DNA from: a virus
Strand: one strand, 5' to 3'
DNA length: 64,000 bases
IMG/VR virus record: IMGVR_UViG_3300044832_000053
Coordinates: 14,926-78,925 of that record
In this document: positions 1-34,960 of the stretch, piece by piece
How positions within the stretch are numbered: the stretch's first letter is position 1
Layout: each line of letters opens with the position of its first letter
Program-made: the position numbers and the translations under genes
Notes under the pieces: model-generated
The model's input: the letters and a program-made list of their open reading frames with translations, nothing else
The model's database searches: none
What the model was told of the DNA's origin: nothing

Positions 1-441
1 ATGGAGCACCCCGCCAAGGTGCCGGTAGGCGTCGATGAACTGGGTGGCGGTGCCGATGCCGGGGGCAGAGAAGTAGGCCGAGACAGGGGCGGCCCGCAGC
101 GCCGTGGCCACGGCGCTGACCGAGTGCCCGAGATCATGTCCCTCGCCGTCTCCCTCGGACAGCTTGAGGGCCGACCCGACGGGCTCGATGTCAAGCATCA
201 GCGGGGTGCCGGACCCGACGATCGTGTGGGCCAGCTTCGCCTGGCTGGCCGGGTCCGAGCGGGACTCCAGGAAGTGGTAGCCGAGCTGGAAAGCGTTGTG
301 CTGGCGGGCCTGGAGGACATGGCCTCCGTAGGCAATGTCAGTCAGCCAGTTCCCCTCGCTGGAGCGGGCACATACCGCCACCGCGCCGGAGAGGCTGATC
401 CCCCGCTGGAACTGGGACACGTCAGGGAAGAAGATCGTCAT
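1..441 (-). CDS. Endolysin, GH25 muramidase family (runs off the left edge; absent from the ORF track)
   Basis: Manual translation from ATG at 441 (SD AGGAG upstream): MTIFFPDVSQFQRGISL...ARSSEGNW...LGYHFL...LMLDIE, matching the GH25 DVSxxQ / SEG / GYHF / LDxE motifs; follows two membrane-protein genes. Confidence 0.85.
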   Translation of the reverse strand, partial: MTIFFPDVSQFQRGISLSGAVAVCARSSEGNWLTDIAYGGHVLQARQHNAFQLGYHFLESRSDPASQAKLAHTIVGSGTPLMLDIEPVGSALKLSEGDGEGHDLGHSVSAVATALRAAPVSAYFSAPGIGTATQFIDAYRHLGGVLH

Positions 442-14681: not shown

Positions 14682-15052
14682 TTGAGTACCTCCTTGGAGA
14701 TCCACTGGAAGAAACGGTTGCGGATGCGCTGCGGGAGCAGGCGGATCTCATCAGCCGTCGGTTTCCCCGAGCACAGCAGGGCATAGACGTCAGCCATCTG
14801 GTCCATCTGGGCCCGGATCTTGGCCGGGTCCAGCGAGTCGAGCGCCTCCAGGAACTTCTCCGGCCCTTCATCCCCCGTCATGCCCGGCATGTCGGTGGAC
14901 GCCTGGACCTCCTTCATCAGGGACTGCATCGCCCCGGTGAATGCCTCGATCTGGTCGTCGGTGGGCTCGGGAATGGTGCCGTGCGAGGCAACGTGCGGCT
15001 CGAACGTGTAGTCGAGCGGGTCTACGACAGTTGCGGCATCGAAGCCAGCCAT
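14615..15052 (-). CDS. Tail assembly chaperone
   Basis: Acidic 145-aa protein between major tail and tape measure genes. Confidence 0.75.
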   Translation of the reverse strand: MAGFDAATVVDPLDYTFEPHVASHGTIPEPTDDQIEAFTGAMQSLMKEVQASTDMPGMTGDEGPEKFLEALDSLDPAKIRAQMDQMADVYALLCSGKPTADEIRLLPQRIRNRFFQWISKEVLNPEAGPGAGTAQVIRLPGAAAG

Positions 15053-16903: not shown

Positions 16904-17406
16904 GGCCTCCGGGGAGGCGGCTTGGTGTTATGCATGACGTGCCACCAGATCCAGCCCAGGAGCTGCGGGGGCATGGGCCGCAGCCGGGACTTGGCCGCCA
17001 GCTCGGCCTCGGTCAGGCGGCGCACGTGAGGCTCGCGGTCAAAGATGACCCGCTCGCCCAGCCGCACGCTCGGGTGCCCGCTTTTGCGCAGGTCCCCGAA
17101 CTCCACCGGGGCGTGGGTGGCGACCCCCCCGTTCCCGGCCAGGTCTTCCACGGCGTGGATCATCTCGCCCTGCCCGCCGTCGTCTAGGGCGGTGCGGGCG
17201 ATGTGGGCCAGGTAGCTGCGGAAATTGTGCAGCAGCGGGGCGGTGAGGTACTTGGCCTGGCCGCCCCGGGGGTGATGCAGGTCCAGGCCCTCGTGCTGGT
17301 AGTGCGCGTAGACCTGGTCCACGATCACGCTGCCCACCAGCCAGCCGCTGGCGCTGCCGGTCTTACGGCGCAGCTCCTCCATCCGCCGCTCGAAGATCCC
17401 GCTCAT
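16900..17406 (-). CDS. Neck/tail completion protein (HK97 gp10-like, apparently permuted)
   Basis: YAHYQHE...GQAKYL and APVEFGDLRKSG motifs. Confidence 0.6.
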   Translation of the reverse strand: MSGIFERRMEELRRKTGSASGWLVGSVIVDQVYAHYQHEGLDLHHPRGGQAKYLTAPLLHNFRSYLAHIARTALDDGGQGEMIHAVEDLAGNGGVATHAPVEFGDLRKSGHPSVRLGERVIFDREPHVRRLTEAELAAKSRLRPMPPQLLGWIWWHVMHNTKPPPRRP

Positions 17407-17915
17407 GCGAAGTCCGGCCCGAGCCCGGAGATCAGGCTCTGGTTCTCGCCAGCCACCTCGCGCCGCCCGGTGAACGGGTCGTAGAAGGTGTTCGAGTCGT
17501 CGTCGGAGAACACGCCCGGGATGCGGTTGATGACCCGCCCGGATTCCAGCACCGCTCCGCCAGTTTGCGGGTCCAGGCGCACCTTGCCGTCGCGGACGTC
17601 GTTGAGCACCTTCATGGCGTCCATGTACGCCAGCCGCACCGGGTCATCAGCGCCCAGCGGCTTGCCCTTGAGGTAGGTCAGCGTGGCGTAGTAGCAGGCC
17701 AGGGACAGGGCCAGGTCCGACACCAGCGGAGGGACCGGGATGGTGAGATCAGCCGAGTCGTAGACCGTGCCCGCATAGGCGGACACCATGTCGCTGCCCC
17801 GCACCGTGGCCTGGACGAGCTGGGCATCGCTGAGCTGGGCGGCCGTGCCCGTGCCCGCATCCGTCCCGCCCAGGGCGTTGCGGATGTCTGCTGGCAGGCA
17901 GTAGGGCGCGACCAT
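17403..17915 (-). CDS. Head-tail adaptor (Mu gp36/DUF1320-like)
   Basis: PYC..ADI, VPPLVSDLALSLACYY, YMDAMKVLNDVRDGKVRL. Confidence 0.75.
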   Translation of the reverse strand: MVAPYCLPADIRNALGGTDAGTGTAAQLSDAQLVQATVRGSDMVSAYAGTVYDSADLTIPVPPLVSDLALSLACYYATLTYLKGKPLGADDPVRLAYMDAMKVLNDVRDGKVRLDPQTGGAVLESGRVINRIPGVFSDDDSNTFYDPFTGRREVAGENQSLISGLGPDFA

Positions 17916-19271: not shown

Positions 19272-20183
19272 TCACACCCCCGAGAGCAGGCAGATGGACA
19301 GCGGCTGGTCCAGGCCGATGGCGCTGGCCCGCTGCGTGTCGGAGCGGAAGGTCTTCTTGGGCTCGTCGCGGTACAGCGGGCCCGCCATGAACGGCAGCTC
19401 GTCGGCGTAAAAGCCGCAGCGCTTGCGCTGCATGATGATCGCGTTGCCCGCCGGGAGCTGGCGGGAGACCATCACGTCCAGGTTGAAGATCTTGTTCGGC
19501 AGGACCCCGGTGTACTGGAGGTTCTCCGACGCGATGTCACCGATGTACGGCGCGGCGAACGTGCTGCTCTGGAGCAGGGTGTTCTTCGTGCCGTGGTTGA
19601 TGATCAGCGTGTCGGCCTCGAAGCCCAGCCACTGCGTGATACCCAGCGGGCTCACGATATTGGCGTTCTCCACGAGGAAAACGCCTTGTGCCAGGTCGGC
19701 CCGGATGGTAGCGGCGGCGCTGGCCCAGGCGTTGGCCACCGAGAGGGTCTGGATCGAGGCGTTCGCGATCACCGCCGAGAAGAAGGCGGTGTTCCACGAG
19801 TAGACCATCGTGTTCTTGACCTGGAGCAACTGCCGGGTCACGGGGTCGATGGACTGCCTGCGGCGCATCTCGTCGGAGACCATGATCGCCATGGCCCGCT
19901 CATGGGTGAACACCACCCGGGGGATGCCGAGGCTGGTCGGCACGACGGGGACCTCACCGAACTCGGGACGGATCTCGGGGAAGTCGTCCGCGTACAGAGG
20001 CGTGCTCTCGCTGTAGCGCACGGCACCGCTGGTCGCGGCCCCGCCATCGCGCAGCACCGAGTCCACGATGAACTCGTTCTCCGTCATGTCGAGGATCAGC
20101 GCCGGGATGACCAGCGGGTCCTTGAGCAGCTCGCTGACAGTGATCCGTGGGGAATCACTGACGCTGGTTGCCGTGGTGGGCAT
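19272..20183 (-). CDS. Major capsid protein
   Basis: 303 aa, EIRPEFGEVP, ADTLIIN and C-terminal DQPLSICLLSGV typical of HK97-fold capsids; position. Confidence 0.85.
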   Translation of the reverse strand: MPTTATSVSDSPRITVSELLKDPLVIPALILDMTENEFIVDSVLRDGGAATSGAVRYSESTPLYADDFPEIRPEFGEVPVVPTSLGIPRVVFTHERAMAIMVSDEMRRRQSIDPVTRQLLQVKNTMVYSWNTAFFSAVIANASIQTLSVANAWASAAATIRADLAQGVFLVENANIVSPLGITQWLGFEADTLIINHGTKNTLLQSSTFAAPYIGDIASENLQYTGVLPNKIFNLDVMVSRQLPAGNAIIMQRKRCGFYADELPFMAGPLYRDEPKKTFRSDTQRASAIGLDQPLSICLLSGV

Positions 20184-20935: not shown

Positions 20936-22153
20936 TCAGACGCCCGTCTGCTGGCGGTAGCGGGCCACCAGGGAGGCCCGGCCCTGGTGGGCGGCGGCGG
21001 CGTCCTCGCCAGGCTCGGCCCCGAGGGCGGACCCCAGCTCGTTGCCGAGGTCCAGCATCTTGGCCATCTTCCCGAACTCGGAGAAGATCTGGCGGACGAT
21101 CGCGCCCGCGTCCACCTCGGTGCCGTTGGACAGCTCCACGGTGCGCCCGGTGCCCTCCAGCAGCGGCCGGGCCAGGTCGCAGATGTAGGGCGCGATGCCG
21201 TAGGTGGCCATGAACCCGTGGCGCTCGGTCTCGTACCGCTGGGCGTCGAGCTGGTCGGTGACCGCACGGAGCTGGCGCTCGTTCTCCTCGCTCCGGGCGT
21301 TGGCCAGCTCGATGGCGAGCTGGGCGGACCCCGAGAGCTGGGCCCCGGCCCCGGCCTCCTGACCGGCGAGCAGCTCCGCGAGCTGCTCGTCAGACAGGGG
21401 ACCGCTGTCGGCCGGGCCGTCGAGGGCCTCGGCTGCGGCGATCAGCTCGGCCAGCTCCTCGTCGGTCAGCTCGGCGTCCGCCGCCGGGCCAGCCGTGGGA
21501 CCGGCCGGTGGCGTGGTGTCGAGGCTGGCGATGAGCTTATCCATCTTGTCGTCGGGAACGTCCAGGAGCCTGGCCAGCCGGGCCTGCTGCTCCGCGTTCA
21601 GCTCGGGCATCATGTCTCCTTCTGAATCGGGAGCGTCAAACGTGGCGTCGGAAAGGTCGATGACCGGGAGGTCATCGTTGGCAAGGTCCACCTGCTGCCA
21701 CGGCCCGAGGCCAGGCAGGCGGGGGTCGAGGGTGCCGAGGACGTGCTGGATGGCGGCCGGGAAGAACTGGCCGTCGGCGCGCTGGTAGTCCTCCACGATC
21801 CGGGCACTCACGCCCAGCCGTGGGTTGTCCTTGAGGATCTTGGAGCCCTCGTCCGTGGTGGACAGGGTGAGCCAGAGCCCGTCGGGCTCGGCGGTCATGG
21901 CGGCTACTTCCCCGCCGAAATTGCGGACATCGTTATTGTGCTTGTTGTCCGCCGACGCGAGCTGGAAGGGCACCTGGCCATAGGCCCGCTGGTGGAATGT
22001 CTCAGCCAGCCCGGCCAGGTAGTCCGCCGTGAAGTCGATCTTGCGGCCCTTGTAGTCGATGGAGCCCACCGGCAGCACCCGCTTGCGCCAGAAGCGCGGC
22101 CCGGCGACCCTGGCCGGGGAGCGGGTGTACGGCGTGAGGACGGCGGCTGTCAC
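20936..22153 (-). CDS. Prohead protease/scaffold (Mu gpI-like)
   Basis: N-terminal protease-like domain (H in NKHN, GVSA, HVLGTLDPRLPGL) plus acidic helical scaffold C-terminus. Confidence 0.8.
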   Translation of the reverse strand: MTAAVLTPYTRSPARVAGPRFWRKRVLPVGSIDYKGRKIDFTADYLAGLAETFHQRAYGQVPFQLASADNKHNNDVRNFGGEVAAMTAEPDGLWLTLSTTDEGSKILKDNPRLGVSARIVEDYQRADGQFFPAAIQHVLGTLDPRLPGLGPWQQVDLANDDLPVIDLSDATFDAPDSEGDMMPELNAEQQARLARLLDVPDDKMDKLIASLDTTPPAGPTAGPAADAELTDEELAELIAAAEALDGPADSGPLSDEQLAELLAGQEAGAGAQLSGSAQLAIELANARSEENERQLRAVTDQLDAQRYETERHGFMATYGIAPYICDLARPLLEGTGRTVELSNGTEVDAGAIVRQIFSEFGKMAKMLDLGNELGSALGAEPGEDAAAAHQGRASLVARYRQQTGV

Positions 22154-22785
22154 GAGCTGCCCCCGAAGCTCTGGGCCCGGCGGGCGAACGCCAGCGCGCG
22201 GGCGGCGGGCATCTTCTTGATCAGCTTCTTGTAGATGGCCACGCCCTTGGGATTCAGCCCGGCCACGGACCCGCCGGAGTCCGAGCTGCCCGAGTCGTCG
22301 CTGCCGGAGTCGGTGGTGCGCGGCCCGTCCGAGGATGAGTTCGCCGCCGTGGCCAGGGCGATGGCCCGGTGCTGGCCATTGGAGAAGGTCTGCACGGCCG
22401 GGATGCCGAACTGCCCCATCAGGGGGGTCTGGACCGCCCGGGGCTGCACCTCGCTCGGCGGGCGGCTCACCTCCTGGTTGTGCGTCCCGATCAGCTCATA
22501 CAGCGCGGCCCGCTGCTGGGTATGCGGGCTCAGCACCCGCTCCCCGAGCTTGCCCGCGTACCTGCCGTCCGCGAGCTTGATCATCTCCCCGATCTTCTGG
22601 CCAGCCCGGCGGTGCACCACGATGGCCCGGCCATCAGCACCCCGGGTCACGTGCAGGTCGAACGGGGAGGTCACCTTGGTCCGTCCCGGCTGGGACCTGG
22701 CCCGCTGCCCGGCAGTCATCGAGCGGACAATCGCCGCCCTGCTGGCACTATCCACGACAGAGCCTCCGTTATCCGGCTGGTTCAT
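22150..22785 (-). CDS. Hypothetical head-module protein
   Basis: Overlaps both neighbours by 4 nt; basic C-terminal helix pair. Confidence 0.6.
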   Translation of the reverse strand: MNQPDNGGSVVDSASRAAIVRSMTAGQRARSQPGRTKVTSPFDLHVTRGADGRAIVVHRRAGQKIGEMIKLADGRYAGKLGERVLSPHTQQRAALYELIGTHNQEVSRPPSEVQPRAVQTPLMGQFGIPAVQTFSNGQHRAIALATAANSSSDGPRTTDSGSDDSGSSDSGGSVAGLNPKGVAIYKKLIKKMPAARALAFARRAQSFGGSS

Positions 22786-22943
22786 TCGCCCTCCCCGGCC
22801 ACGGCCCGCCTGACCAGGTCATCGGCCATCTTGGCGGCCAGGTCAGTGGCCATTCCCTTGCTGATGAGCAGTTTCCCCAGGATCTCGGTCGCCCTGGCCT
22901 GCTGGTCGTCCGTGGCGTCTGCGGCCCGGGGCAGGGGAGCCAT
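22782..22943 (-). CDS. Small helical protein (53 aa, not in track)
   Basis: MAPLPRAADATDDQQARATEILGKLLISKGM...; overlaps both neighbours. Confidence 0.55.
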   Translation of the reverse strand: MAPLPRAADATDDQQARATEILGKLLISKGMATDLAAKMADDLVRRAVAGEGE

Positions 22944-23500
22944 CACAGCTTCTTCGCGGCGTCGGTGAGTTCCATGATCACTAGCGGGCCGAACGAGGCA
23001 CCCAGGCCCAGCAGGAGCGGAGCGCCGAACGTGGTGGCCAGGGCAACCAGGATCGCGGCGGCCACGATGGTCCCGATGTGGACAGCGAGCTTGATCCGGG
23101 CCTTCCTGGCTTCCTTCTCGGCAGCCAGCCTCTCCAGCTTCTGCTTGTCCATCTCGATCGCAGCGAGCTTTTTCGCCACGTCTGAGGCATGTGCCTCGCG
23201 GGCGGCTTCCTCGGCCCTGACTTCCTTGAGGACGGGGGCCTGCATGGCCGTGATGGCTATCAGGGACTGGAGCTGTGCCGCTCCCTGGGCCCTGGCAGCC
23301 TGGCTGGCCATGGCAGCGCGCGGGGTTGAGCCGCCCTTGATCCAGCGGCCGTGTGAATCCCGCAGCTCCAGTTCCATCTGGGCCAGCTCAATGGCTTCCC
23401 GCTCTGTCTCAAGAACGTCAACAGCCATGAGAAACGGGAGGCCAGCGGCGGTGAGGGTGCGGAAATCACGGAGCTGTCGCTGCGTGATCTGCGTGGGCAT
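22943..23500 (-). CDS. Head-module protein with IELA / RDSHGRW motif, coiled coil and C-terminal hydrophobic hairpin
   Basis: Translation shows AIELAQMELELRDSHGRW, then coiled coil and two hydrophobic segments. Confidence 0.65.
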   Translation of the reverse strand: MPTQITQRQLRDFRTLTAAGLPFLMAVDVLETEREAIELAQMELELRDSHGRWIKGGSTPRAAMASQAARAQGAAQLQSLIAITAMQAPVLKEVRAEEAAREAHASDVAKKLAAIEMDKQKLERLAAEKEARKARIKLAVHIGTIVAAAILVALATTFGAPLLLGLGASFGPLVIMELTDAAKKL

Positions 23501-23539
23501 CAGTGGTGACCCTCTCACTTGATCACTGATGCTACGCGC

Positions 23540-23812
23540 CTAGCCTGCTGTATGCATGCCCACAGAAGCGGCAGTAGCCAGGACACGGTACTGATCTGCC
23601 GTGATCCGGCCCGCGTTGAATGCCAGCTCGACCTCGTACCATGATCCTTCACCGGGCCACGGGCGTCCAGTCAGATCGCTGGCAATTGTCTCGTGATACC
23701 CGGCCGCCGGGGTGGTCTTTTCCCAGCTCAGGTGCGCGAATTTCACCGCTGCCTCAGCCAGGTCCATGTTCCCCGAGGTCAGGGCATCAAGGATGTCCCT
23801 CACATTGCCCAT
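23540..23812 (-). CDS. Small protein overlapping the end of the polyprotein gene (candidate zeta-toxin immunity)
   Basis: 90 aa, starts within last codons of the 1751-aa ORF; function inferred from position only. Confidence 0.5.
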   Translation of the reverse strand: MGNVRDILDALTSGNMDLAEAAVKFAHLSWEKTTPAAGYHETIASDLTGRPWPGEGSWYEVELAFNAGRITADQYRVLATAASVGMHTAG

Positions 23813-26800
23813 GAGAACTCCAGGCCCTGGCCGGAGCTGGACACGAGCTGCGGCTCGCGGCCGGTCACGGAGTTGTCGAACTTGTCCCAGGAGTCGAACA
23901 ATGGCAGGGCCATGGCGAATGTCATCTCGTTCACCGAGATCTCCGGGTCTGAGGTTCCCCAGATCTTCACGATGTCCGCCGGGGGGACATGCCGCCCGCC
24001 GAGCCCCTTGCCCGCCAGCCAGCTCTCCAGCCCCGCGCGGTAGCGGGCCAGCGCCCGGTCGATCGAGACCTGGAGCGGGACGTCAACATAGACGCCGTGC
24101 ACATGCCCGTAGCCAGCCGACCGCAGCCGGGCGATGTGCCCGGCCATGTCATCGGCCGGGAGCATGGTCAGGTCCACGATGATGTTCTTGCGCATCGCCA
24201 TCGAGCGGTCCAGCGCCATCTGGGCCAGGTGATGTGCCTCGTCGCTCACCAGCGGGCTGGCTTCCATGGGTGACAGGTTCCCGACGTGGGGCACCAGCCC
24301 GCGCTTGGCCAGCTCGGCCTTGAAATCATCCGGGGCGATGGGCAGGTAGTCGTCCATGTTCATGCCGGGCAGCTTGCCCAGTGCGGTGGTCTTGCCCGCG
24401 CCTGGCAGGCCGCCGCCGAAGATCGCCCGGCCCCCGTTGGGCACTGCGGCCGAGCGCGCCATGACCGCGTCGATGATCTCCTTGTGGATCGCGGCGCGCT
24501 CGGGGGTGTAGATCTGCCCGTCCCCGCTCACGGACTGGGTAACCGCCGTGTTCTGCCCGGCCGCGAAGGCGTCAGTCAGGGTCTGCTCCACTACGTGCTG
24601 CCGTCCCGTGAACTCGGCGTCCGTCAGCGGCCGGGCTGCCTGGCCGCTGATCCCGTGCGCGACCGTGGGTGATTCCTCGTAGTCGAGGTTGTCGTCTTCC
24701 TCGTCCCAGCGGTGGGTGTAGGCGGACGGCGTGATGTACGGGCCAGCGGAGATCAGGCCCTTGTCCCCGGCCGGGGGCGGCCCGGCCTTGACCGGCTTCC
24801 AGCCGTGCGTGTAGACGAAGGGCGTGCCCGGGATGTGACGGCCATGGCCGTCGCCGGTCAGGTCTAGCTGGGCGCTGACCGTGGCAGTGCCGCGACCGAG
24901 TCCGCCAGGGCCCGTGCGATCTCCAGCCGCCTGGCCTCCGGCAGCTCGCGATAGCTGGACGGGACCGGCCCCGCCACCACCTTGGGCGTGGGCTCCGCTG
25001 GCTGCTCCACCGCTACCTCCTGCCTGGATCTCCCGGCCGCCGGTCACGTCCCAGATAGCCGCCTGGCCGCGCTTCCTGCCCTCCGCGAGCGCCTGCTCCC
25101 GGCTGGCAATGTTGTCGCTCGGCTCCAGCCAGAGCTTACCGTCGTGCACCCATCCGCCCAGGTAGGTGTCTTTCCCGGCGAACGCCTGGTGCTCGCTCAT
25201 GATCATGCCGTCAATGGCACGGGCCAGCTTCTCCCGGTCATCGAGGATCTCAGCCGGGAAGGTGTGCGTGTGCCCGGCCTGGGCAACCATGAACCCGCTG
25301 GCTGGCTTGCCGCCGGTCCGCATGCTGACCGAGAATCCTCCCCGGTTCTGCGCGGCCGAGGCTGCCTTGCTGCGGATGGTGAACGGGCCGGGCCGGGGCG
25401 GCCCGGGTGAGGGGCGGAACATGCCCGCGATGGCCTGCTGCATCCGGGGGGGTTCCCCGCTGGGCAGGTTCACCCAGCGGCCCCGGAAGTCACGGGGCTC
25501 GTGAGCACTGAACGCCAGGTCGATGCCCGCTGCCTGGCCGCTCAGTGTGGTAGTCCCCGGGACCACCGGAACGTGATGGGCAGCGGCGAACTTCTTCCAG
25601 ATCCCCCAGTCCCGGGCGGTGTTGGCGGTGCGCCCGCGCTCCCGGGCCGTGACCGCTGCCGCGTCGGCCGCCTGGTTGGCGGCCTGCTGGTGCAGCCAGG
25701 TGATCGCCTGGAGCTGGGATGGGGTGACCAGGTGACCCTGCCGGGACAGCTCCGCAGCCGCCAGCCGGTAGGTGTCCGCGACGTGCTCGTAGTAGCGCTT
25801 GTCCCCGATGGGCGAGGCGTCGATCTCCTCCGTGGTCACCCGGTGCCCGGCCGCGACGGACAGGGCGTGCCGGTCAATGACCACCTGGCCGAGCCGGTCG
25901 GAGGATGCGTCCCCGCCGTGAGCGATCAGCTTCGCGAACGCCCGGGTCTTGGGGGACTTGAGGGCGTCGATACTGCCGGTGTCCATGGCCCGCTGCGCGG
26001 CCCGCTGCTCGGGGCGGCTGATGAAGCCCTCACCGGGGCCCAGGGCGCGGCCCAGCTCCAGCGAGCGGGCCGCGTTGAACAGGTTCTCCGGCCAGTTCAC
26101 CTGCGGGGAGAACGCGGCCAGCACCGCCGCGCCCTTCTCCGCATCCCCGCCCGCGATGGACCGGGCCACCATCTGTGCGTCGGCGTACCAGCGCATCCCC
26201 TGGGCCTTCTCAGCCGGGGCAGCCGCGCTGTAGGCGGCAACGATGTTCGCCGGGCTGACCGGCACCGACTTGAAGAACGGGTGATCCGCCGGGCTCACGA
26301 TGGAGCTGCGCGGGTTGGCCAGCCGGGAGGGGTCCGGGGCCGCGTACTCATGGCCGCTCACGCTCCACCGGCCATGAGGGTCCCGCAGCTCGGCGGGGTT
26401 GTAGTGCCAGCCGCCCGCCAGGTCAACGCTGAACTCCCGGAACTGGCCCAGCGCCACCCGGTCCGCGTGCGTGTATCCCTTCACCGGCTTGTAGGAGTGG
26501 ATGAACTCCGGGGGCAGCGGCTTGCGGATCGCCCGGTATCCCATGTGGCTGGTGCTGGGATACAGGAACTCAGCTTCCCTGGCCTTGGGCACCCGGATGT
26601 CGATCAGCATGCCCGGCTTAGACGGCCATTCAAGATCATCGTGCCGCTCGTACGCGACGATCTGCGACTCGTTGCTGTCTGGGGACAGCACTGGGTCGTA
26701 CCCGTCATACCCGGCTGCGTGCAGGCCCTGGTCCCGGATCGACCGGGCGGCCTCCGGCGTGGTGCCGTGGAAGAACTGGGTGTAGCTGGACGGGTCAGCC

Positions 26801-29055
26801 TCCGGCCCGCCCCGGGTCCACTCGCCATGCTCGTTGCGCAGCTCGTGCACCCAGTTGCCTGCGCTGGGCCTGGGGCTGGGGCTGCCGGAATCCTTCTTAT
26901 TCCACCAGCTCAGCTCAACACTGAACTCCCCGCCGCCGGGTCCCAGCTCACCGGCCCGCTCCATCATGTCCGAGTACCACATCTGGTGACCCAGCCGCTC
27001 GAACTGGGGCTCCAGCTTGGCCAGCTCCGCCCGGATCTTGTTGGCGTAGTCCTGCGGGATGTTCGAGGGCTCCTCATTCCAGAACGTGGTAGAAGCCGCG
27101 CCATCTCCGGCATATATGAAGCCCGAGCTGTTGTCGATGGCCACCGGGCTGCCGGACGGGGTGACCATCCAGTTATTGGAGTGGCGGTCCGGGTTCTGGA
27201 TCAGGAAGTCCAGCAGCCCGATCTTCTGGCCGTCCTCTGACTGGGTCAACTCGCTCTGGGCTCCGTAAGGTGCATCAGCCAGGTACCGCGAGGCGGTCGT
27301 GCCCGGGACAAAGCCCATGACCTCCTCAGCAGGATCACCCCCGCTGACGCGGGCGATGGGCGGTGAGGGTGCCCCGATGGCCTGGGCGACGTAGTAGGCC
27401 AGCTCGTCGGTGTCCGCCATCTCCTCATAACCGGAGTGGTAGATCTTGTGCACCACCTTCTCGCCATTGGGCAGGGTCACGATGTCCACATTGCCCTGGA
27501 CCCCCTGCTGAGGGTGCATGGACTCGCCCTCTGCGAGCTGATCCGGGGTAGCGATCTGCTCCAGGTGCTGTACGGCCGGGCTGGACGGTCCCAGCCCTCC
27601 CGGCTGCGGCATGCCCGGCAGCAGGTATTGCTTGACGCCCGTCGTGACCATCACCCCGGGGGCGGTCTGCCGGGGAGGCTCAGGCAGTCCCGCCAGGATC
27701 TTGGACGCCGGGACCGGGGTGCCCAGCAGGCCGTTGACCCGCCTGACCAGTTCAGGTCCGGCCTGGTACTCCCCGCCCGCGACAAACTGCCGGGCAAGCT
27801 GCTGGGCCCGGCCCTCGTTGATCGCCTGGTGCCGCTCCGCTCCTGCGGCGCGGGCGGATACCCGGTGCTCCATGACCGCAGCCCAGGTCTGCCCCTGGAT
27901 ACTGGGCGGGATCTGGGATAGCTGCTGGGCCTGGAGGACGTTACCCCCGTTCCGCCAGTCCACCAGGTAGCGGTTCCCGTCATCGGATTCGACCACCACG
28001 TTGCTGCTGGTCATGGCGGTGACCCGGCCTACCCCGCCATGGCCGTCGCGGGCCATGTCCCCGAGCTTCGGCTCCCGGTTGCCGGGCAGGAAGGCGGCCC
28101 CGGCCCCGCTGCCGTGCGGGCCGATGAATTCCCACTGCTTCCCGCCCGGGGATGGGCTGGGCGTCTCCGCCTGCGGGTTGAATGCGGGCCGGGGCGTGCC
28201 CATCTTCATCCCGCCCAGTCGCGGGCCAGCCTGGCTGAGCGGGACGGTGTGCACGGGGGCACCACCGTTGCGCCAGTCCACCAGGTGACGCTTCTGGTCG
28301 TTGGCGTCGATCACCGCATGGCCGCCGCCTTTGTTGACGACCCTCCCCCAAACGCCCTGGCTGTTGCGTGCCTGGTCATTGACCTGCGGCTCCGCCACTA
28401 CCTGGGAGCCACCCCGGATGAACTGCCAGCGGCCGAGGATCGCGGGCCCGGCGACCTCATCCGCCAGCAGCGCCCGGTGCAGCCTGGATTCCTGGTTCAG
28501 GGCACTTACCTGGGCAGCGGTGCCTGAAACCTGCCGGAAATCAGCACCGTGCACGGGCTGGAGCTGGGCCGCGACCGAGTCCGGTGCCTGGCCGTGTATT
28601 CCCGGGTGTGCGCCCCGGATGATCTGGCCCTGCTCATCCACTGTCCAGGTGTCGAGATTCTCCCGGCGGTTGTTGTGCTGGACCCGCCGCAGTCTCTGGG
28701 CGTTGACCAGCCGGTCCTCGCCTATCTGATCCCGGATCGACTCCGGCCCCATCCCACGGGCCCGCAGGACCCGGGCCCGGTTAATCTCCGCCCCGTCGCG
28801 GAGGCCCTTGGGGGTCGGGGCCTGCTTCATCCGGTCTGCCCGCTCCTGGGCCGCCGCCGCGTCATGCTTGGCCTGCCACATGATCCCGTTGATGGCGGTC
28901 GGGCCGTAACCCCGTGCCGCGAGTGCAACGCGCTTGCGCTGGTCCTCCAGGGCCGTGGCGGAGAATCCGGGCCTCTTCGCCCAGCGCCCGTGGGTGTCAC
29001 GGAGCTGATTGGGCTGGAAGTGCCAGGCCAGGTCCACCTGCTCGCTGATGCTCAC
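23800..29055 (-). CDS. Multi-effector (polyvalent) protein: SH3-like repeats, HipA/PI3-4-kinase-like, ADP-ribosyltransferase-like, HhH-glycosylase-like, SAM-lyase-like(?), zeta-toxin P-loop kinase
   Basis: Motifs LLDFLIQNPDRHSNN/VAIDN; FFHGTT..AARSI..QGL..PLPPEFI; GMRWY..SPQVNW..KTRAF..VVIDRHA..LQAITW; YLGGW..GRKRGQAAIWD; GGLPGAGKTT..IAPDDFK..GGRHVP. Confidence 0.85.
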   Translation of the reverse strand: MSISEQVDLAWHFQPNQLRDTHGRWAKRPGFSATALEDQRKRVALAARGYGPTAINGIMWQAKHDAAAAQERADRMKQAPTPKGLRDGAEINRARVLRARGMGPESIRDQIGEDRLVNAQRLRRVQHNNRRENLDTWTVDEQGQIIRGAHPGIHGQAPDSVAAQLQPVHGADFRQVSGTAAQVSALNQESRLHRALLADEVAGPAILGRWQFIRGGSQVVAEPQVNDQARNSQGVWGRVVNKGGGHAVIDANDQKRHLVDWRNGGAPVHTVPLSQAGPRLGGMKMGTPRPAFNPQAETPSPSPGGKQWEFIGPHGSGAGAAFLPGNREPKLGDMARDGHGGVGRVTAMTSSNVVVESDDGNRYLVDWRNGGNVLQAQQLSQIPPSIQGQTWAAVMEHRVSARAAGAERHQAINEGRAQQLARQFVAGGEYQAGPELVRRVNGLLGTPVPASKILAGLPEPPRQTAPGVMVTTGVKQYLLPGMPQPGGLGPSSPAVQHLEQIATPDQLAEGESMHPQQGVQGNVDIVTLPNGEKVVHKIYHSGYEEMADTDELAYYVAQAIGAPSPPIARVSGGDPAEEVMGFVPGTTASRYLADAPYGAQSELTQSEDGQKIGLLDFLIQNPDRHSNNWMVTPSGSPVAIDNSSGFIYAGDGAASTTFWNEEPSNIPQDYANKIRAELAKLEPQFERLGHQMWYSDMMERAGELGPGGGEFSVELSWWNKKDSGSPSPRPSAGNWVHELRNEHGEWTRGGPEADPSSYTQFFHGTTPEAARSIRDQGLHAAGYDGYDPVLSPDSNESQIVAYERHDDLEWPSKPGMLIDIRVPKAREAEFLYPSTSHMGYRAIRKPLPPEFIHSYKPVKGYTHADRVALGQFREFSVDLAGGWHYNPAELRDPHGRWSVSGHEYAAPDPSRLANPRSSIVSPADHPFFKSVPVSPANIVAAYSAAAPAEKAQGMRWYADAQMVARSIAGGDAEKGAAVLAAFSPQVNWPENLFNAARSLELGRALGPGEGFISRPEQRAAQRAMDTGSIDALKSPKTRAFAKLIAHGGDASSDRLGQVVIDRHALSVAAGHRVTTEEIDASPIGDKRYYEHVADTYRLAAAELSRQGHLVTPSQLQAITWLHQQAANQAADAAAVTARERGRTANTARDWGIWKKFAAAHHVPVVPGTTTLSGQAAGIDLAFSAHEPRDFRGRWVNLPSGEPPRMQQAIAGMFRPSPGPPRPGPFTIRSKAASAAQNRGGFSVSMRTGGKPASGFMVAQAGHTHTFPAEILDDREKLARAIDGMIMSEHQAFAGKDTYLGGWVHDGKLWLEPSDNIASREQALAEGRKRGQAAIWDVTGGREIQAGGSGGAASGAHAQGGGGAGPVQLSRAAGGQAAGDRTGPGGLGRGTATVSAQLDLTGDGHGRHIPGTPFVYTHGWKPVKAGPPPAGDKGLISAGPYITPSAYTHRWDEEDDNLDYEESPTVAHGISGQAARPLTDAEFTGRQHVVEQTLTDAFAAGQNTAVTQSVSGDGQIYTPERAAIHKEIIDAVMARSAAVPNGGRAIFGGGLPGAGKTTALGKLPGMNMDDYLPIAPDDFKAELAKRGLVPHVGNLSPMEASPLVSDEAHHLAQMALDRSMAMRKNIIVDLTMLPADDMAGHIARLRSAGYGHVHGVYVDVPLQVSIDRALARYRAGLESWLAGKGLGGRHVPPADIVKIWGTSDPEISVNEMTFAMALPLFDSWDKFDNSVTGREPQLVSSSGQGLEFSWAM

Positions 29056-29273
29056 GGGTGCACCCAGACGTACCCGTTGCTCCAGCCGTCCAGGGACTCG
29101 AACGCGATCTCCGCATCACCGCCAGCCCGGCGCAGCGCTGAGTCCGCGATGGCCTGGCTGGACTCGCTGCTGCCGGTCAGGCGGTCCGTGTCCAGCCTGA
29201 TGGTGCCGAGCTGGCCCTGCTCATCGAAGACCCCCAGCGTCAGCGGCTCACCGGCCTGGCTGGAGATGCTCAC
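29052..29273 (-). CDS. Small acidic protein (ends WSNGYVWVHP)
   Basis: Overlaps both neighbours by 4 nt. Confidence 0.6.
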   Translation of the reverse strand: MSISSQAGEPLTLGVFDEQGQLGTIRLDTDRLTGSSESSQAIADSALRRAGGDAEIAFESLDGWSNGYVWVHP

Positions 29274-30984: not shown

Positions 30985-31608
30985 CTACGCGGCCAGGCGC
31001 ACCAGGGTTGGCAGGAGCGGCGCTCCCCTGAACGGGGCCACCGGGTGGCACCGGCAGTGCGGGTGCACCGTTCCCGGGTACCCGATTGCCGGGGGGATTG
31101 CGGCCAGGAAGTTGCGGCCGTCCGCTGCCTTGCACTCGGGCGACGTCCGGGCGTCGTGTACTGACTGCCATCCGAGAACCTTTCCCCATCTGTAAGCCGC
31201 GCCGTCGATGGCCGACCCGGCCATGATGCGCCCCTGGTTGGCCTCGAAGTGCTGGCCGAAGTAGCGGGATTCGGTCTCGGCCAGCCGGTCAAGCGCCTCG
31301 GCACGTGGCTCGCCCCGGCTGGCGGCCCCGGCCAGGCCGTCCTGGATGCGGTGGGCGGCGGCCACGAAGAACGCTGAGCGCCGGGCGATGTTGGCGTGCG
31401 CAGCCCATCGGGTGGCCGGGCCGACGCCCTCGATCCGGTCAGGCGGGTAGCGGGTCTCGATGGCGATCACCGCGCGCAGCGCCGGGCCGCTGATGCCCGC
31501 GCCATGGAACGTCCCGGCGATCTGCGTGAAGATGCCAGCCGCCGACGGGTAGGCCGCGAACGCCCGCGCTGCGGTAAGCGCGAGCATGGCATCGCTGCGG
31601 GCGCTCAT
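30985..31608 (-). CDS. MuF-like minor head protein
   Basis: WQSVHDARTSPEC..DGR..PGTVHPHCRC; ATG at 31608 in ATGA overlap; follows portal. Confidence 0.85.
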   Translation of the reverse strand: MSARSDAMLALTAARAFAAYPSAAGIFTQIAGTFHGAGISGPALRAVIAIETRYPPDRIEGVGPATRWAAHANIARRSAFFVAAAHRIQDGLAGAASRGEPRAEALDRLAETESRYFGQHFEANQGRIMAGSAIDGAAYRWGKVLGWQSVHDARTSPECKAADGRNFLAAIPPAIGYPGTVHPHCRCHPVAPFRGAPLLPTLVRLAA

Positions 31609-31802
31609 ACCGGGTGGACCGTCCCGTCCCGGGCGAAGTGCTCGTCCACGGTGTGCCCGTACTCCATCGCGTGCATCGCGGCGTCGTTGAGCACCCCGGG
31701 GATGGTCATGGGGTAGCTGGTGGTGCTGGCGGTCTCGGTGAAATCGCCGTCCTGGCAGGTCACGGTCATGGTCTCGGTTGAGTCGATCCTGATGGGGGTC
31801 AT
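31605..31802 (-). CDS. Small hypothetical protein (65 aa, MTPIRID...)
   Basis: ATGA overlaps with portal and MuF. Confidence 0.55.
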   Translation of the reverse strand: MTPIRIDSTETMTVTCQDGDFTETASTTSYPMTIPGVLNDAAMHAMEYGHTVDEHFARDGTVHPV

Positions 31803-33370
31803 GCCATCTTCCCGGGTGGCGGCACCATGGGCGGCTTGCCCGGCGGCCGTGGCGGCCCGGCAGCACTCTGGCGCGGTGGCATCTGCCCGGGGGCGGGGAC
31901 CTGGCCACCCGTGGCCTGGTGGGCGATGCCCAGCGCGGTGCTGGCCATGCCGTTGAGCGCGCCCACCCCGGCCAGGGCCGAGGGGGGCATGCCGGGAGGG
32001 GCCCCGGCGGCCCCGGCGAGCTGGGCGGCCCGCTGGGACGCTGAGTTGACCAGCGCGGTGTGCACCTGGTCGATGTCGAGCTGGAGGACCGAGGCCATCC
32101 GCTCGGCCAGCAGGTCCACGAACTCGATGGGGATGTGCAGCGCGGGGGCGGCGACGATCTGCCCGAACAGGGTCAGCAGCGCCTGGATCTGCTCGTCCTG
32201 GAGCGGCCCGAACTTGAACTTGGGGAAGGCGGCGTCGGGCCCGAAGTTCAGGATGATCATGGGAGCGATGACGTCGTGGCTGATCCACCCGGCCATCTCC
32301 TTGGCCACAGCCTGCCGGGACTTGAGGTAGAAGCTGGACTGGTCCTGGGACAGCGCGTAGCTTCCCTTGCCGCCCGTGGATGCCCCGGTCAGGCCCATGA
32401 ACCCGGCCAGTACCGAGCCGATCTGCCACTGCTCCAGGAAGCCCAGGGCCTCCTTGAAGATCGCGCCGCCCTCGCCAGCCGCCGGGATGGTCTCGAACGA
32501 CTTCTGGCCCGCCTCGGGATGGACCAGGCCCACCACGCCGGAGGACCGCAGCGAGGCAATGTCATCCGCGCGGGTGTTGGCCTCGGGCTGGTCATTGCCG
32601 TAGACGATCGTGCGCGGCAGGGCCAGGTTTTCGAGGTAGTTGTACCAGAGGAACAGCAGCTTCATCTTGGTCTGGTAGCACCAGTAGGCGATCTCCATCT
32701 CGCTGACCCCGACCAGGGGCTCGCGGTGGGTGCCGTGGGTGTAGATGGCGCTGCGGATCTTGGGGATGTCCACGTACCCGGGGACCTTGGACTTGGCCTG
32801 GAGGGTGTTGGCCTGGCCGAACATCCACACGAGCTGGCGGAACCCGTTCGGGTTCCCGCTCCGCTCGTTGAACGCGCTCTGGCAGGTGGACGGCGGCCGG
32901 TAAGCGAGCTTGTCAAGCACCACCCGCTCGTCGCTGGCCCGGATCTTCCAGACCTTCTCGAAGAACGCCTTCTTGTAGATCTGCCCGGACGTGACCTGGC
33001 CGATGAACTGCTCGATGGGCGTCTGCATGCCGCCCTCGGTGTCCGGGGTCATCAGCACCGAGTTGGCCAGGTCGGCCTCGCCCTTGTCGCCCTTGGCGGG
33101 CTCGATGGACTGGTCAGCCTCGCGGACGGGCAGGGTCAGCACCATCTCGATGGCCGAGCACTGGCCATCGCGGCGGAACATGGTTTTCATGTCCCGCGCG
33201 CCCCACTCGCCATAGTCGAAGACGTCGCCGGAGCCGAAGTAGGCGAACAGCTTCTGGCCGTAGTCGAACGCGGTCCCGATCTCCGGGCCCATCAGGTCCC
33301 GGCGGTCACCGGGCTTGAGGTCGGGGAACTTGAGGATGCGGGCGGTGGACGGGTCGCGGGCTGCCATCAC
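31799..33370 (-). CDS. Portal protein (Mu gp29/DUF935-like)
   Basis: FFEKVW, KGSYALSQDQSSFY, LNFGPDAAFPKFKF; follows terminase. Confidence 0.9.
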   Translation of the reverse strand: MMAARDPSTARILKFPDLKPGDRRDLMGPEIGTAFDYGQKLFAYFGSGDVFDYGEWGARDMKTMFRRDGQCSAIEMVLTLPVREADQSIEPAKGDKGEADLANSVLMTPDTEGGMQTPIEQFIGQVTSGQIYKKAFFEKVWKIRASDERVVLDKLAYRPPSTCQSAFNERSGNPNGFRQLVWMFGQANTLQAKSKVPGYVDIPKIRSAIYTHGTHREPLVGVSEMEIAYWCYQTKMKLLFLWYNYLENLALPRTIVYGNDQPEANTRADDIASLRSSGVVGLVHPEAGQKSFETIPAAGEGGAIFKEALGFLEQWQIGSVLAGFMGLTGASTGGKGSYALSQDQSSFYLKSRQAVAKEMAGWISHDVIAPMIILNFGPDAAFPKFKFGPLQDEQIQALLTLFGQIVAAPALHIPIEFVDLLAERMASVLQLDIDQVHTALVNSASQRAAQLAGAAGAPPGMPPSALAGVGALNGMASTALGIAHQATGGQVPAPGQMPPRQSAAGPPRPPGKPPMVPPPGKMA

Positions 33371-34960
33371 TCACCGCCAGGAGCGGACGTTCGGCCGTTC
33401 GGGACGATCTTGATCATCCCCCTCACCGTCTTTGGGCGCGAAGGATTCGAGATCCCAGCGCTGGTCCTGATCGTAGGCCCCTCCGTGCGCGTAGGCGAGC
33501 CGCCGGGACGGTAGCTGCCCAAGCGGCTTGCTGAATTCCTCCAGATCCTGGCTCGCTGCCCACCGCCGCACGGACGCCGGGACCCCCCGGGTGTCGAAGC
33601 TGCTCTTGAGAAACGGGTGCACTGCCCAGCACAGCGAATCGAGCCGGTCAGGGCTGCGCTCGTTGGCCGCCCCGGTGAAGGAGCACATCTGGTCCTCCAG
33701 CTCCACGAACGGCCCGTAAGCGTGCCGGACCAGGCCCCGCTCGTACAGCGCGGCGGCGGGCTCGGCCCGGGTCCGCTTGCCGAGGCTGGCGTGCACGGTC
33801 TTCACGTGCGGGACATGGTCCGCCAGCCGCCCGGCCTTGGTCAGCTTCTTCTTGACCTGGGAGAACACCTCGGCCAGCCAGGCCCCGCCGTGGTTCTTCT
33901 CCACCACCAGGCTGGCTCTCCACTCGTGGGCCGCCAGCAGGGCCTTCTCCGCGAACTGGGCCGGGCCGATCCGGCCGCCCCAGCTATCAAGGATGTAAAC
34001 AAATCCGTCGTTGCCCATCCCGGCCACCGTGTACGCCTGCTCATCGGAGTCCTCGGTGCCGTCCGAGGGGTCAACACCGACGTAGATAGTGAGCATGGAG
34101 ACCGGGCGGCCGTCGTCCAGCATGGGCTTGCCTACCTGGATGGACTCCAGCAGGTCCCGGGTCCACAGCGCATTCTCGACGTCATCGAGCAGCTCGCCTT
34201 CCAGCTCCTGGCGTTCCAGCCGGGTGCCCTTGGCCAGCGCGATGACGCCCTGGAAGAACGCCTCGGACAGGTTGGCGATGTTGTCGATGGTCCGCAGGCG
34301 GCGGATGACCATGCCGGGCTCGTCGCCCCGCAGGAACCGGCGGATCAGCGCGGCGGCGGGCCGGGAAACCTTGGGTGTCCCGGTGGTGATGATCTTGGAC
34401 GCGCCGAGCCGGACCGCGAACTTGATTGACTCGTCCCAGGCGATGGCCCACTTCTGCCAAAGCCCGATCTCATCCCCCCACAGGCCCTTGAGGTTCTTGC
34501 CCTGGACCCGCAGCGCACCGTCGTCGGCGGAGTCCACGAAGATGATGTGACCGTTGCGGAGCCCGATCTCGCCGTAGCTGCGGTGTGCATAGGCAACCTG
34601 CTTGGAGCTGTGGTCCTTGACCTCCCCGGCCGAGGTTCCCAGTGCGGCCAGAATGCCAGCCCGGCCCTCCACGCAGACGGTCCAGGCGTCCCGGTAGGTG
34701 GGCGCGACGATGCCCCACTCCCCATCGGCCTCGCCGTCGTCCAGGATGAGCTGAGCGAGGCCCTGAGCCCCCGCACGGGTCTTCCCGCTGCCACGGCCGC
34801 CCTGGTAGTACACCTTGGACCATGGCTCCTCAGGGAGCCGCTGGGACGGCCGGGCGGTGTCCAGCCAGGCCATCCGGGGATCGACGGCAACCGAGTCGAG
34901 CGCGTCCGCGACCGCGCTGAGCAGATCCTGGTCAGCCGGTGGGACGTAGATGGCGGACAA
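33371..34960 (-). CDS. terL: Terminase large subunit
   Basis: GGRGSGKTRAG Walker A, LWGDE Walker B, TGTP, VGVDP and SPDRLDS nuclease motifs. Confidence 0.95.
   Translation of the reverse strand: MSAIYVPPADQDLLSAVADALDSVAVDPRMAWLDTARPSQRLPEEPWSKVYYQGGRGSGKTRAGAQGLAQLILDDGEADGEWGIVAPTYRDAWTVCVEGRAGILAALGTSAGEVKDHSSKQVAYAHRSYGEIGLRNGHIIFVDSADDGALRVQGKNLKGLWGDEIGLWQKWAIAWDESIKFAVRLGASKIITTGTPKVSRPAAALIRRFLRGDEPGMVIRRLRTIDNIANLSEAFFQGVIALAKGTRLERQELEGELLDDVENALWTRDLLESIQVGKPMLDDGRPVSMLTIYVGVDPSDGTEDSDEQAYTVAGMGNDGFVYILDSWGGRIGPAQFAEKALLAAHEWRASLVVEKNHGGAWLAEVFSQVKKKLTKAGRLADHVPHVKTVHASLGKRTRAEPAAALYERGLVRHAYGPFVELEDQMCSFTGAANERSPDRLDSLCWAVHPFLKSSFDTRGVPASVRRWAASQDLEEFSKPLGQLPSRRLAYAHGGAYDQDQRWDLESFAPKDGEGDDQDRPERPNVRSWR

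Follow-up and report, generated by a model that had tools for sequence, protein, structure and literature searches.

Polyvalent proteins of phages, described by Iyer, Burroughs, Anand, de Souza and Aravind in 2017, are predicted to be packaged in the capsid, and an analogy with polyproteins was drawn in the same work (PMC5512222). One such protein has been detected in phi24B virions by proteomics (bioRxiv 10.64898/2026.04.10.717836). Polyvalent proteins are believed to reach the host ahead of all other phage proteins, and their loading and separation have so far had no sequence-level explanation, save for embedded metallopeptidases in some of them. Here we describe P0001, a 1751-residue protein of this class encoded in the head operon of an uncultured phage. 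The analyzed DNA is a 64,000-nucleotide window (positions 14,926 to 78,925) of the 78,925-bp IMG/VR virus record IMGVR_UViG_3300044832_000053, the CheckV completeness of which is 100%. Each of the five unrelated modules of P0001 opens with a conserved peptide cassette, and we propose, with a probability of roughly 0.6, that the joints so formed are cut by the phage's own prohead protease.

By its domain content and gene neighborhood P0001 is a phage polyvalent protein as defined by Iyer et al. (PMC5512222). Like the proteins of that class, it carries unrelated conflict-type domains (a kinase, a zeta kinase, nucleic-acid enzymes and, tentatively, an ART) in one polypeptide, is encoded among late/head genes and takes part in domain shuffling. 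At least two unrelated effector-type domains, a head-gene neighborhood and mosaic shuffling were thus all found; an embedded peptidase, which is frequent and not obligatory in the class, was not. Pfam, PHROGs and NCBIfam revealed no peptidase family in P0001, remote folds in its unmodelled parts not being excluded by these searches. The published proposal assigns release to embedded peptidases (a Zn metallopeptidase or a C-terminal assemblin-like domain), whereas the protease of the present locus is a separate gene. PMC5512222 was searched for mention of a conserved inter-module peptide, a linker, a spacer, a motif at module boundaries or a site common to a scaffold, and none was found. An original prediction made from the letters of this DNA had presented P0001 as a candidate new system. 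This was an overstatement, since the idea of packaging and polyprotein-like release had already been published, and what is added here is the cassette and its tag.

The prohead protease of T4, gp21, cuts at L/I-x-E, with a preference for Glu at the P1 position. In T4, the internal proteins (IPI-III) and Alt enter the core by means of an N-terminal targeting sequence of about ten residues, which gp21 removes while it degrades the scaffold (PMC9958956). Similarities with the present locus include a protease of gp21 fold (Z 10.3), leaders of 4–12 residues that end in a hydrophobic and an acidic residue, and, tentatively, an ART-like enzyme among the cargo. In T4 one enzyme cuts both cargo and scaffold core, and in the present locus the two share a sequence motif. 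T4 cargo consists of single proteins with one discarded leader, whereas in P0001 the signal is repeated in one chain and a second peptide would remain on each product. The joint site also differs, its P2 position being hydrophobic and its P1′ position Leu. In the giant phages phiKZ and SPN3US, gp175/gp245 cut many head-internal proteins at a short motif after Glu, with propeptides cut at several sites (PMC10052503, PMC5694885), and ejection proteins are among those cut after Glu by SPN3US gp245 (PMC10052503). Short-motif cleavage after Glu by a gp21-like protease is the common feature; the giant phages differ in that long propeptides are taken off structural or ejection proteins, with no arrays of unrelated enzymes bearing one repeated cassette, as are present in this 79-kb siphovirus-type genome. 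Finally, in the MuF polymorphic toxins of temperate phages (Jamet et al. 2017, PMC5576092), a variable toxin domain is linked to a head module and predicted to be carried inside the capsid. Toxin domains of zeta type, and for P0001 tentatively of ART type, are common to the two. P0001, in contrast, has no Phage_Mu_F match, the weak MuF of the locus being a separate ORF (open reading frame) two genes upstream, and it carries five modules instead of one toxin tip.

All five modules of P0001 (two repeats with a PI3/PI4-like kinase, ART-like, DUF7178, alpha/beta, zeta kinase) open with a joint of the form S-x-Q-x-[VIL]-[DE]↓L-[AG], where the arrow marks the putative cut, followed by W-x-F-N-P-x-E-x-R-D-x-H-G-R-W (Table 1). 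Alignment of 13 copies, drawn from this phage and the syntenic phage L003, gave the consensus x-x-x-[VIL]-[DE]-L-[AG]-(W/F)-x-F-N-P-x-E-x-R-D-x-H-G-R-W-x-x-G, in which L, R, G and W do not vary. The four-residue sites that the original prediction had placed at aa 7, 713, 877, 1178 and 1397 are all there. The alignment identifies them as only the beginning of a cassette of about 25 residues, and the second half of this cassette, R-D-x-x-G-R-W, is a tag of wide distribution. Seven matches to [VILM][DE][LM][AGST] were observed in P0001, compared with 1.04 expected from shuffles; two of the seven lie inside modules, at aa 999 (confidently modelled DUF7178 helices) and aa 1627 (within the Zeta_toxin Pfam match). 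A further site, LEFS, had been suggested at the C-terminus; the residues exist, and we rejected them as a cut site since they are not conserved in the zeta homologue P0009.

The start of P0001, a short leader that ends in the site (MSISEQVD↓LA) and is followed by the tag, is common to many homologues, and similar leaders are seen on single-module genes. Joint 5 has the usual cut-site half and a different second half; this variant, TGDGHGRHIPGTPFVYTHGWKP, recurs at a module boundary in P0006 and P0139. A six-frame scan of the window detected the cassette outside P0001 only in P0002 (two copies) and in the 191-aa protein (one copy). The joints of P0002 are YSIE↓LAFHPDQLRGPDGRW and ESVE↓LAGFNPAEPRTAGGTW, and the same protein contains a tag-less site, TISSQALE↓MS.

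The original prediction had asked whether the motifs fall inside folded domains. A model of aa 715-1398 was built with AlphaFold2 (AF2) from an alignment of 27 rows. Predicted local distance difference test (pLDDT) values were about 90 for aa 904-1173 and 1229-1357, and the joints at 878 and 1178, as well as the spacer before 1397, were in segments with values below 50. The two joints that can be modelled, 3 and 4, are thus predicted to lie outside confidently folded domains.

The 405-aa product of 20936-22153, which had been called a prohead protease from its sequence, has over 750 homologues and is not named in Pfam, PHROGs or NCBIfam. Searches of PDB sequences with it and with P0001 returned nothing, nor did NCBIfam. 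A model based on 37 sequences consists of a confident beta-rich part (aa 1-145), a disordered stretch (aa 146-181) and a helical C-terminal region. Foldseek placed T4 gp21 first and herpesvirus proteases next. Structural search with VIA gave Z 10.3 for gp21 (5jbl_A; 129 of 165 residues, root mean square deviation (rmsd) 3.5) and Z 5-7 for herpesvirus assemblins. Three residues, H72, S116 and H137, are invariant in the 37 homologues. Their His/Ser/His order and the 21-residue distance from Ser to His presumably match the gp21 triad, and from this order and spacing we infer that they are equivalent to the gp21 catalytic residues. The model thus identifies the protein as a gp21-fold prohead protease fused to a scaffold, as in Mu gpI, and the earlier assignment was right.

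The scaffold part of this protein carries the joint site. Five matches were observed in it, compared with 0.59 expected (shuffles, p 0.001), and four of them are conserved in L003. One, D166-L167 within [VIL]-D-L-[ST], is invariant in the 37 homologues and is located in the disordered junction after the protease domain; further along the scaffold, M-A-I-E-L-A-N and x-V-E-L-[SG] are nearly invariant. Across 80 loci fetched by the protease family, site density per 1000 aa was 11.8 in the protease-scaffold, 3.0 in tag-bearing proteins and 0-1 in TerL, portal, MuF and the major capsid protein; the protease-scaffold exceeds other head proteins about tenfold. A position-specific scoring matrix was also computed on 143 joints of other proteins, over positions P8-P2′ and with the tag excluded. 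The scaffold sequence GSAQLAIE↓LAN scored 13.3 bits, compared with a joint median of 13.9. The matrix gave 1.0 hit per scaffold protein, hits were nearly absent from TerL, portal, MuF and the major capsid protein, and the tag-less site of P0002 was found as well, with 16 bits. Prediction of a complex between the protease-scaffold and a 36-residue joint gave ipSAE 0.00-0.01, a value that counts neither for nor against binding.

The capsid protein of L003 is 85% identical to that of the present phage and its polyprotein only 39%; the cassette copies of P0001, the second joint of P0002 and the joint of the 191-aa protein all recur there. A profile of 36 cassette columns was searched against 1.84 billion representative proteins (clusters at 50% identity), yielding 967 proteins at E ≤0.001 and 188 at ≤1e-10. 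Most are 1000-3800 residues long with 3-9 copies each, and the tag-sharing proteins tested carry ART-PolyVal, GNAT, Fic, zeta and His_Phos (histidine phosphatase) domains. In five full-length relatives of P0001 the modules are re-ordered, duplicated or replaced, and alignments of modules among relatives begin at residues 1-4 of each module. The DUF7178 module takes third place in P0001, second place in P0005 and the lead in several other proteins. Of its 36 occurrences among the 150 best profile hits, 34 start within 15 residues of a detected joint, and 29 end no more than 25 residues away from the next joint or the end of the protein. Homologues of the ART-like module are N-terminal in P0223 (67% identity), internal in P0224 and likewise differently placed than in P0001 in P0138. 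The boundary motif is therefore conserved in homologues and modules do swap at it, two points that the original prediction had singled out for checking.

Among the ORFs on the protease strand of the 80 loci, tag-bearing ones were found upstream of the protease and never downstream. Both fused and split forms occur: some phages have one chain with four or five tags, others a run of three or four genes that carry one or two tags apiece. Single-module genes often open with a leader of 4-12 residues that ends in a hydrophobic residue and [DE] before L-A (VSISDQVE↓LAAW, VSVE↓LAFDP, VTNPVD↓LAFDP), and the tag is within the first 45 residues in 88 of the 150 best hits. A few proteins begin directly at the tag (MAFNPAEPRD, MTFNPAEPRD). 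From these, the two halves of the cassette are separable and the cut is likely to be between [DE] and L.

The exact core P-R-D-D-H-G-R-W-T was found in 43 genome stretches from Alphaproteobacteria, Ruminococcus, Nostoc, Planctomycetia and Sorangium, and all 46 matches translate to one wider context, itself outside the search pattern. Distant proteins carry K-Y-S-P-D-Q-P-R-D-D-H-G-R-W. In the contigs L088-L130 the tag core has a K-[YF]-[SND]-P-x-Q context, with Lys usually just before the tag, where the present phage has [DE]-L-A; this Lys may reflect a different site, recognized by another protease. A DNA pattern for YSPDQPRDDHGRW matched four short loci with one tag each and little flanking context. 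P0147 and P0009 were sought in viral contigs and not found, and full-text literature searches for tag strings returned unrelated papers only, with no description of the tag.

We take it as most likely that the prohead protease recognizes the first half of the cassette, [ST]-I-S-x-Q-x-[VIL]-[DE] with L-[AG], and would cleave on the C-terminal side of Asp/Glu. For the second half, (W/F)-x-F-N-P-x-E-x-R-D-x-H-G-(R/E/K/Q)-W, the most likely role is that of a docking peptide, by which a module would be held or positioned in the capsid or helped to leave it. The P0001 chain would co-assemble into the prohead together with the protease-scaffold. Once activated, the protease would degrade its own scaffold at the shared sites and cut the chain into single enzymes, each keeping the tag on its new N-terminus. 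The enzymes would then exit with the DNA and act on the host. Of the packaged, protease-cut polyprotein seen by the original prediction, the modular protein, the conserved boundary motif and a true protease whose scaffold shares the site are borne out; packaging, cleavage, the exact scissile bond, the role of the tag and injection are what we infer.

Several points weigh against this mechanism. Cleavage, packaging and injection are predicted from sequence, for this uncultured phage and its relatives alike. Asp/Glu at P1 and the location of the cut are conjectured from analogy and from the proteins that begin at the tag. A hydrophobic residue followed by acidic-Leu-Ala is short and common in helices, although the composition-matched shuffles and the invariant copy in the disordered junction argue against such an origin. 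The [VIL][DE]L[AG] half is far less widely distributed than the tag, so the two halves may serve unrelated functions.

The last point leads to an alternative that we regard as unlikely and that nevertheless fares best among the rivals, namely that the chain is packaged and stays uncut. The cassette of about 25 residues would then be a multivalent docking peptide only, for the capsid interior, scaffold, portal or MuF, and the scaffold would carry similar peptides since it binds the same receptor. Conservation of R-D-x-x-G-R-W far beyond the clade with the [VIL][DE]L[AG] half agrees with this, as does delivery of the N4 virion RNA polymerase and of some other polyvalent proteins in uncut form (PMC5512222). 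N-terminal copies, moreover, retain upstream residues though there is nothing upstream to remove. Docking alone, however, does not account for the behavior of the halves as separate elements, the upstream one being absent where proteins begin at the tag and present without a tag in the scaffold and in P0002. Nor does it account for the invariant scaffold copy in the junction after the protease domain, which is the usual place of self-release. A gp21-fold protease also needs substrates, and the joints and scaffold sites are the only conserved candidates.

Cleavage by another agent (a host protease after injection, another phage protease, or the chain itself) is quite improbable. Post-injection release has been proposed by Iyer et al. 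for some polyvalent proteins (PMC5512222), and the data presented here do not fix the timing of the cut; yet the site is common to the joints and to the protease's own scaffold, P0001 has no peptidase domain in Pfam, PHROGs or NCBIfam, and no known self-cleaving motif is similar to the joint. That the joints are mere recombination scars or flexible spacers easing module exchange at the DNA level, with no protein signal, is very hard to believe, for while modules do shuffle at joints, the conservation is at the amino-acid level in 967 protein clusters, the peptide is found in genomes of several phyla that differ in G+C, and it heads single-module genes, for which a recombination partner is not required.

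Returning to cleavage by the prohead protease, a broader and more tentative proposal, which we would not back at even odds, is that the cassette represents a general, so far undescribed cargo grammar of tailed phages. A clade-specific prohead-protease site would be followed by a near-universal docking peptide, [FY]-[NSD]-P-x-[EQ]-P-R-D-x-x-G-R-W-x-x-G-G, which directs whatever domain comes next into the capsid and on to ejection. Phages could in that case add enzymes to the injected payload or drop them, rapid module exchange would be explained, the payload of uncultured phages would become predictable from sequence, and the short peptide could be used to load chosen proteins into phage capsids. 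The locus yields a grammar that can be tested, consisting of a site common to cargo and to the protease's scaffold and of a portable tag seen in about 1000 protein clusters as well as in genomes from several bacterial phyla. Should this grammar fail, the tag would still be a conserved, unnamed element that calls for explanation.

Table 1. Positions in the 64,000-nucleotide window of P0001, its modules and joints, and other genes of the head region; arrows mark putative cuts
Feature	Position	Strand	Remarks
P0001, 1751-aa multi-module (polyvalent) protein	23800..29055	(-)	ORF, GTG start; homologues P0004-P0009; Pfam domains
Module 1, aa 9-714	26914..29031	(-)	Helical N-region; two ~80-aa repeats (aa ~208-390); PI3/PI4-kinase-like domain aa ~460-700, catalytic loop DRHSNN
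Module 2, ART-like, aa 715-878	26422..26913	(-)	Begins FFHGT; Atlas feature match; homologous modules elsewhere
Module 3, DUF7178, aa 879-1179	25519..26421	(-)	Pfam 4e-37 (aa 936-1121); AF2 pLDDT >90 aa 904-1173
Module 4 (M4), alpha/beta, then Gly-rich spacer, aa 1180-1398	24862..25518	(-)	phrog_17808, PHROG 3.7e-7; AF2 pLDDT ~90 aa 1229-1357
Module 5, zeta-toxin-type P-loop kinase, aa 1399-1751	23803..24861	(-)	Pfam Zeta_toxin; Walker A GGLPGAGKTT
Joint 1, aa 1-25	28981..29055	(-)	8-residue leader MSISEQVD; putative cut before L9; tag LAWHFQPNQLRDTHGRW
Joint 2, aa 706-747	26815..26940	(-)	EFSVE↓LSWW, Ser/Pro insert, WVHELRNEHGEW
Joint 3, aa 869-903	26347..26451	(-)	EFSVD↓LAGGWHYNPAELRDPHGRW; low pLDDT to aa ~902, just ahead of DUF7178 fold
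Joint 4, aa 1170-1200	25456..25548	(-)	QAAGID↓LAFSAHEPRDFRGRW; within low-confidence aa 1174-1228
Joint 5, aa 1390-1425	24781..24888	(-)	VSAQLD↓LTGDGHGRHIPGTPFVYTHGWKP; usual cut-site half, different second half
Module order in P0001			kinase block, ART-like, DUF7178, M4, zeta
Module order in P0005			kinase block, DUF7178, kinase, M4, X
Module order in P0008			short module, DUF7178, M4, X
Protease-scaffold, 405 aa	20936..22153	(-)	Protease aa 1-145 and helical scaffold-like region
Candidate cut sites in the 405-aa protein	aa 155-158, 165-168, 281-284, 339-342, 367-370		165-168 = invariant D-L, disordered junction
Large terminase TerL	33371-34960	(-)	
Mu-type portal	31799-33370	(-)	
MuF-like minor head protein, weak match	30985..31908	(-)	Pfam Phage_Mu_F and PHROG minor head / head morphogenesis families
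P0002, 639 aa	29270..31189	(-)	Two full joints, one tag-less site; start uncertain
73-aa ORF	29052..29273	(-)	Conserved; GTGA overlap with P0001 start
90-aa ORF	23540-23812	(-)	Overlaps last codons of P0001 zeta module
191-aa protein	22943..23518	(-)	One joint, EAIE↓LAQMELELRDSHGRW; hydrophobic C-terminus
211-aa protein	22150-22785	(-)	Directly upstream of protease
Major capsid protein	19272-20183	(-)	
Tape measure protein, 1252 aa	10524-14282	(-)	C-terminal transglycosylase-like region

Individual modules of P0001 were assigned with varying certainty. In module 1, the two repeats that had been described ahead of the kinase were confirmed by a local alignment score of 129 (aa ~208-290 against ~306-390). 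Of the label HipA/PI3-4-kinase-like, the PI3/PI4 part is supported by the Pfam family PI3_PI4_kinase, which is just over its cut-off in the isolated module (27.5 bits vs 27.1, with an alignment covering the catalytic-loop region only) and clearer in the homologues P0005 (39.5 bits) and P0006 (45.2 bits). Module 2 has a language-model (Atlas) feature match of 0.92 to Tox-ART-HYD1 clusters with a low shared-feature count, no Pfam match at E <5 and low AF2 confidence in its region (pLDDT <50), and its ART-like label is only a lead.

An HhH-glycosylase-like domain had been recognized in module 3. Foldseek alone gave a weak result (E 1.1), and VIA bore the fold out, with Tm1821 OGG at the top (Z 9.7, 172 residues aligned, rmsd 3.5). 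The top 22 VIA rows include Tm1821 OGG, MagIII, OGG1, EndoIII, MutY and AlkA glycosylases, and the queuine-salvage enzyme DUF2419 is also listed (Z 8.0). As modelled, DUF7178 has the HhH-GPD glycosylase fold; glycosylase chemistry is only a possibility, DUF2419 scoring equally well. Homologues of module 4 are present in 17 profile-hit proteins. Its suggested S-adenosylmethionine (SAM)-lyase identity was dropped as unsupported, because Foldseek and VIA revealed no convincing fold match (best Z 3.6). Module 5 proved to be the zeta-type P-loop kinase that had been expected, with a Zeta_toxin (PF06414) match at aa 1544-1695 (2e-14, 53.8 bits vs cut-off 22.3) and a Walker A motif; it is 42% identical to the C-terminus of P0009.

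The G+C content of the stretch is about 69%. Megablast of the head region against 50,697 deposited phages gave no match, and tblastn against the same set gave single-module matches only, all below 40% identity, with no close relative. Judged by names of metagenome-assembled genomes met among the protease homologues, Streptosporangiales are the probable hosts. The presence of a 1252-aa tape measure protein suggests a siphovirus-like virion. The gene order on the minus strand is TerL, Mu-type portal, weak MuF, P0002, 73-aa ORF, P0001, 90-aa ORF, 191-aa protein, 211-aa protein, protease-scaffold, a 163-aa protein and the major capsid protein, with the tape measure further downstream. P0001 is thus correctly placed in the head operon between MuF and the protease, though other genes also intervene. 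The Phage_Mu_F match of the 30985-31908 ORF (E 1.3e-5, 26.4 bits) is under the Pfam cut-off of 29.6. The P0002 ORF overlaps the 3′ end of this ORF by about 200 nucleotides, and a similar overlap of about 270 nucleotides is seen in L003; the C-terminus of P0002 is a Lys/Ala/Thr-rich tail.

The 73-aa ORF is conserved in L003, L033 and L027 and is fused to the N-terminus of the polyprotein in L042; its product may act on the P0001 chain as a chaperone or cap its N-terminus. Frameshifting or read-through into P0001 was considered and rejected, the conserved peptide upstream of the GTG start being that of the overlapping 73-aa gene. The 90-aa ORF, which has no family match in Pfam or PHROGs and no homologue among the 80 related loci, is a candidate immunity protein for the zeta module. 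It occurs only where the zeta module does. The 211-aa protein is conserved in 73 of the 80 loci and is longer in L017, L037, L041 and L044; the longer form has a leader-plus-tag cassette at its start in L017, L041 and L044 and an internal tag at about aa 339 in L037. Downstream of the capsid gene, a 170-aa protein family (17403-17915, minus strand) has about one [VILM][DE][LM][AGST] match per protein, or 4.7 per 1000 aa, which is above the other structural proteins.

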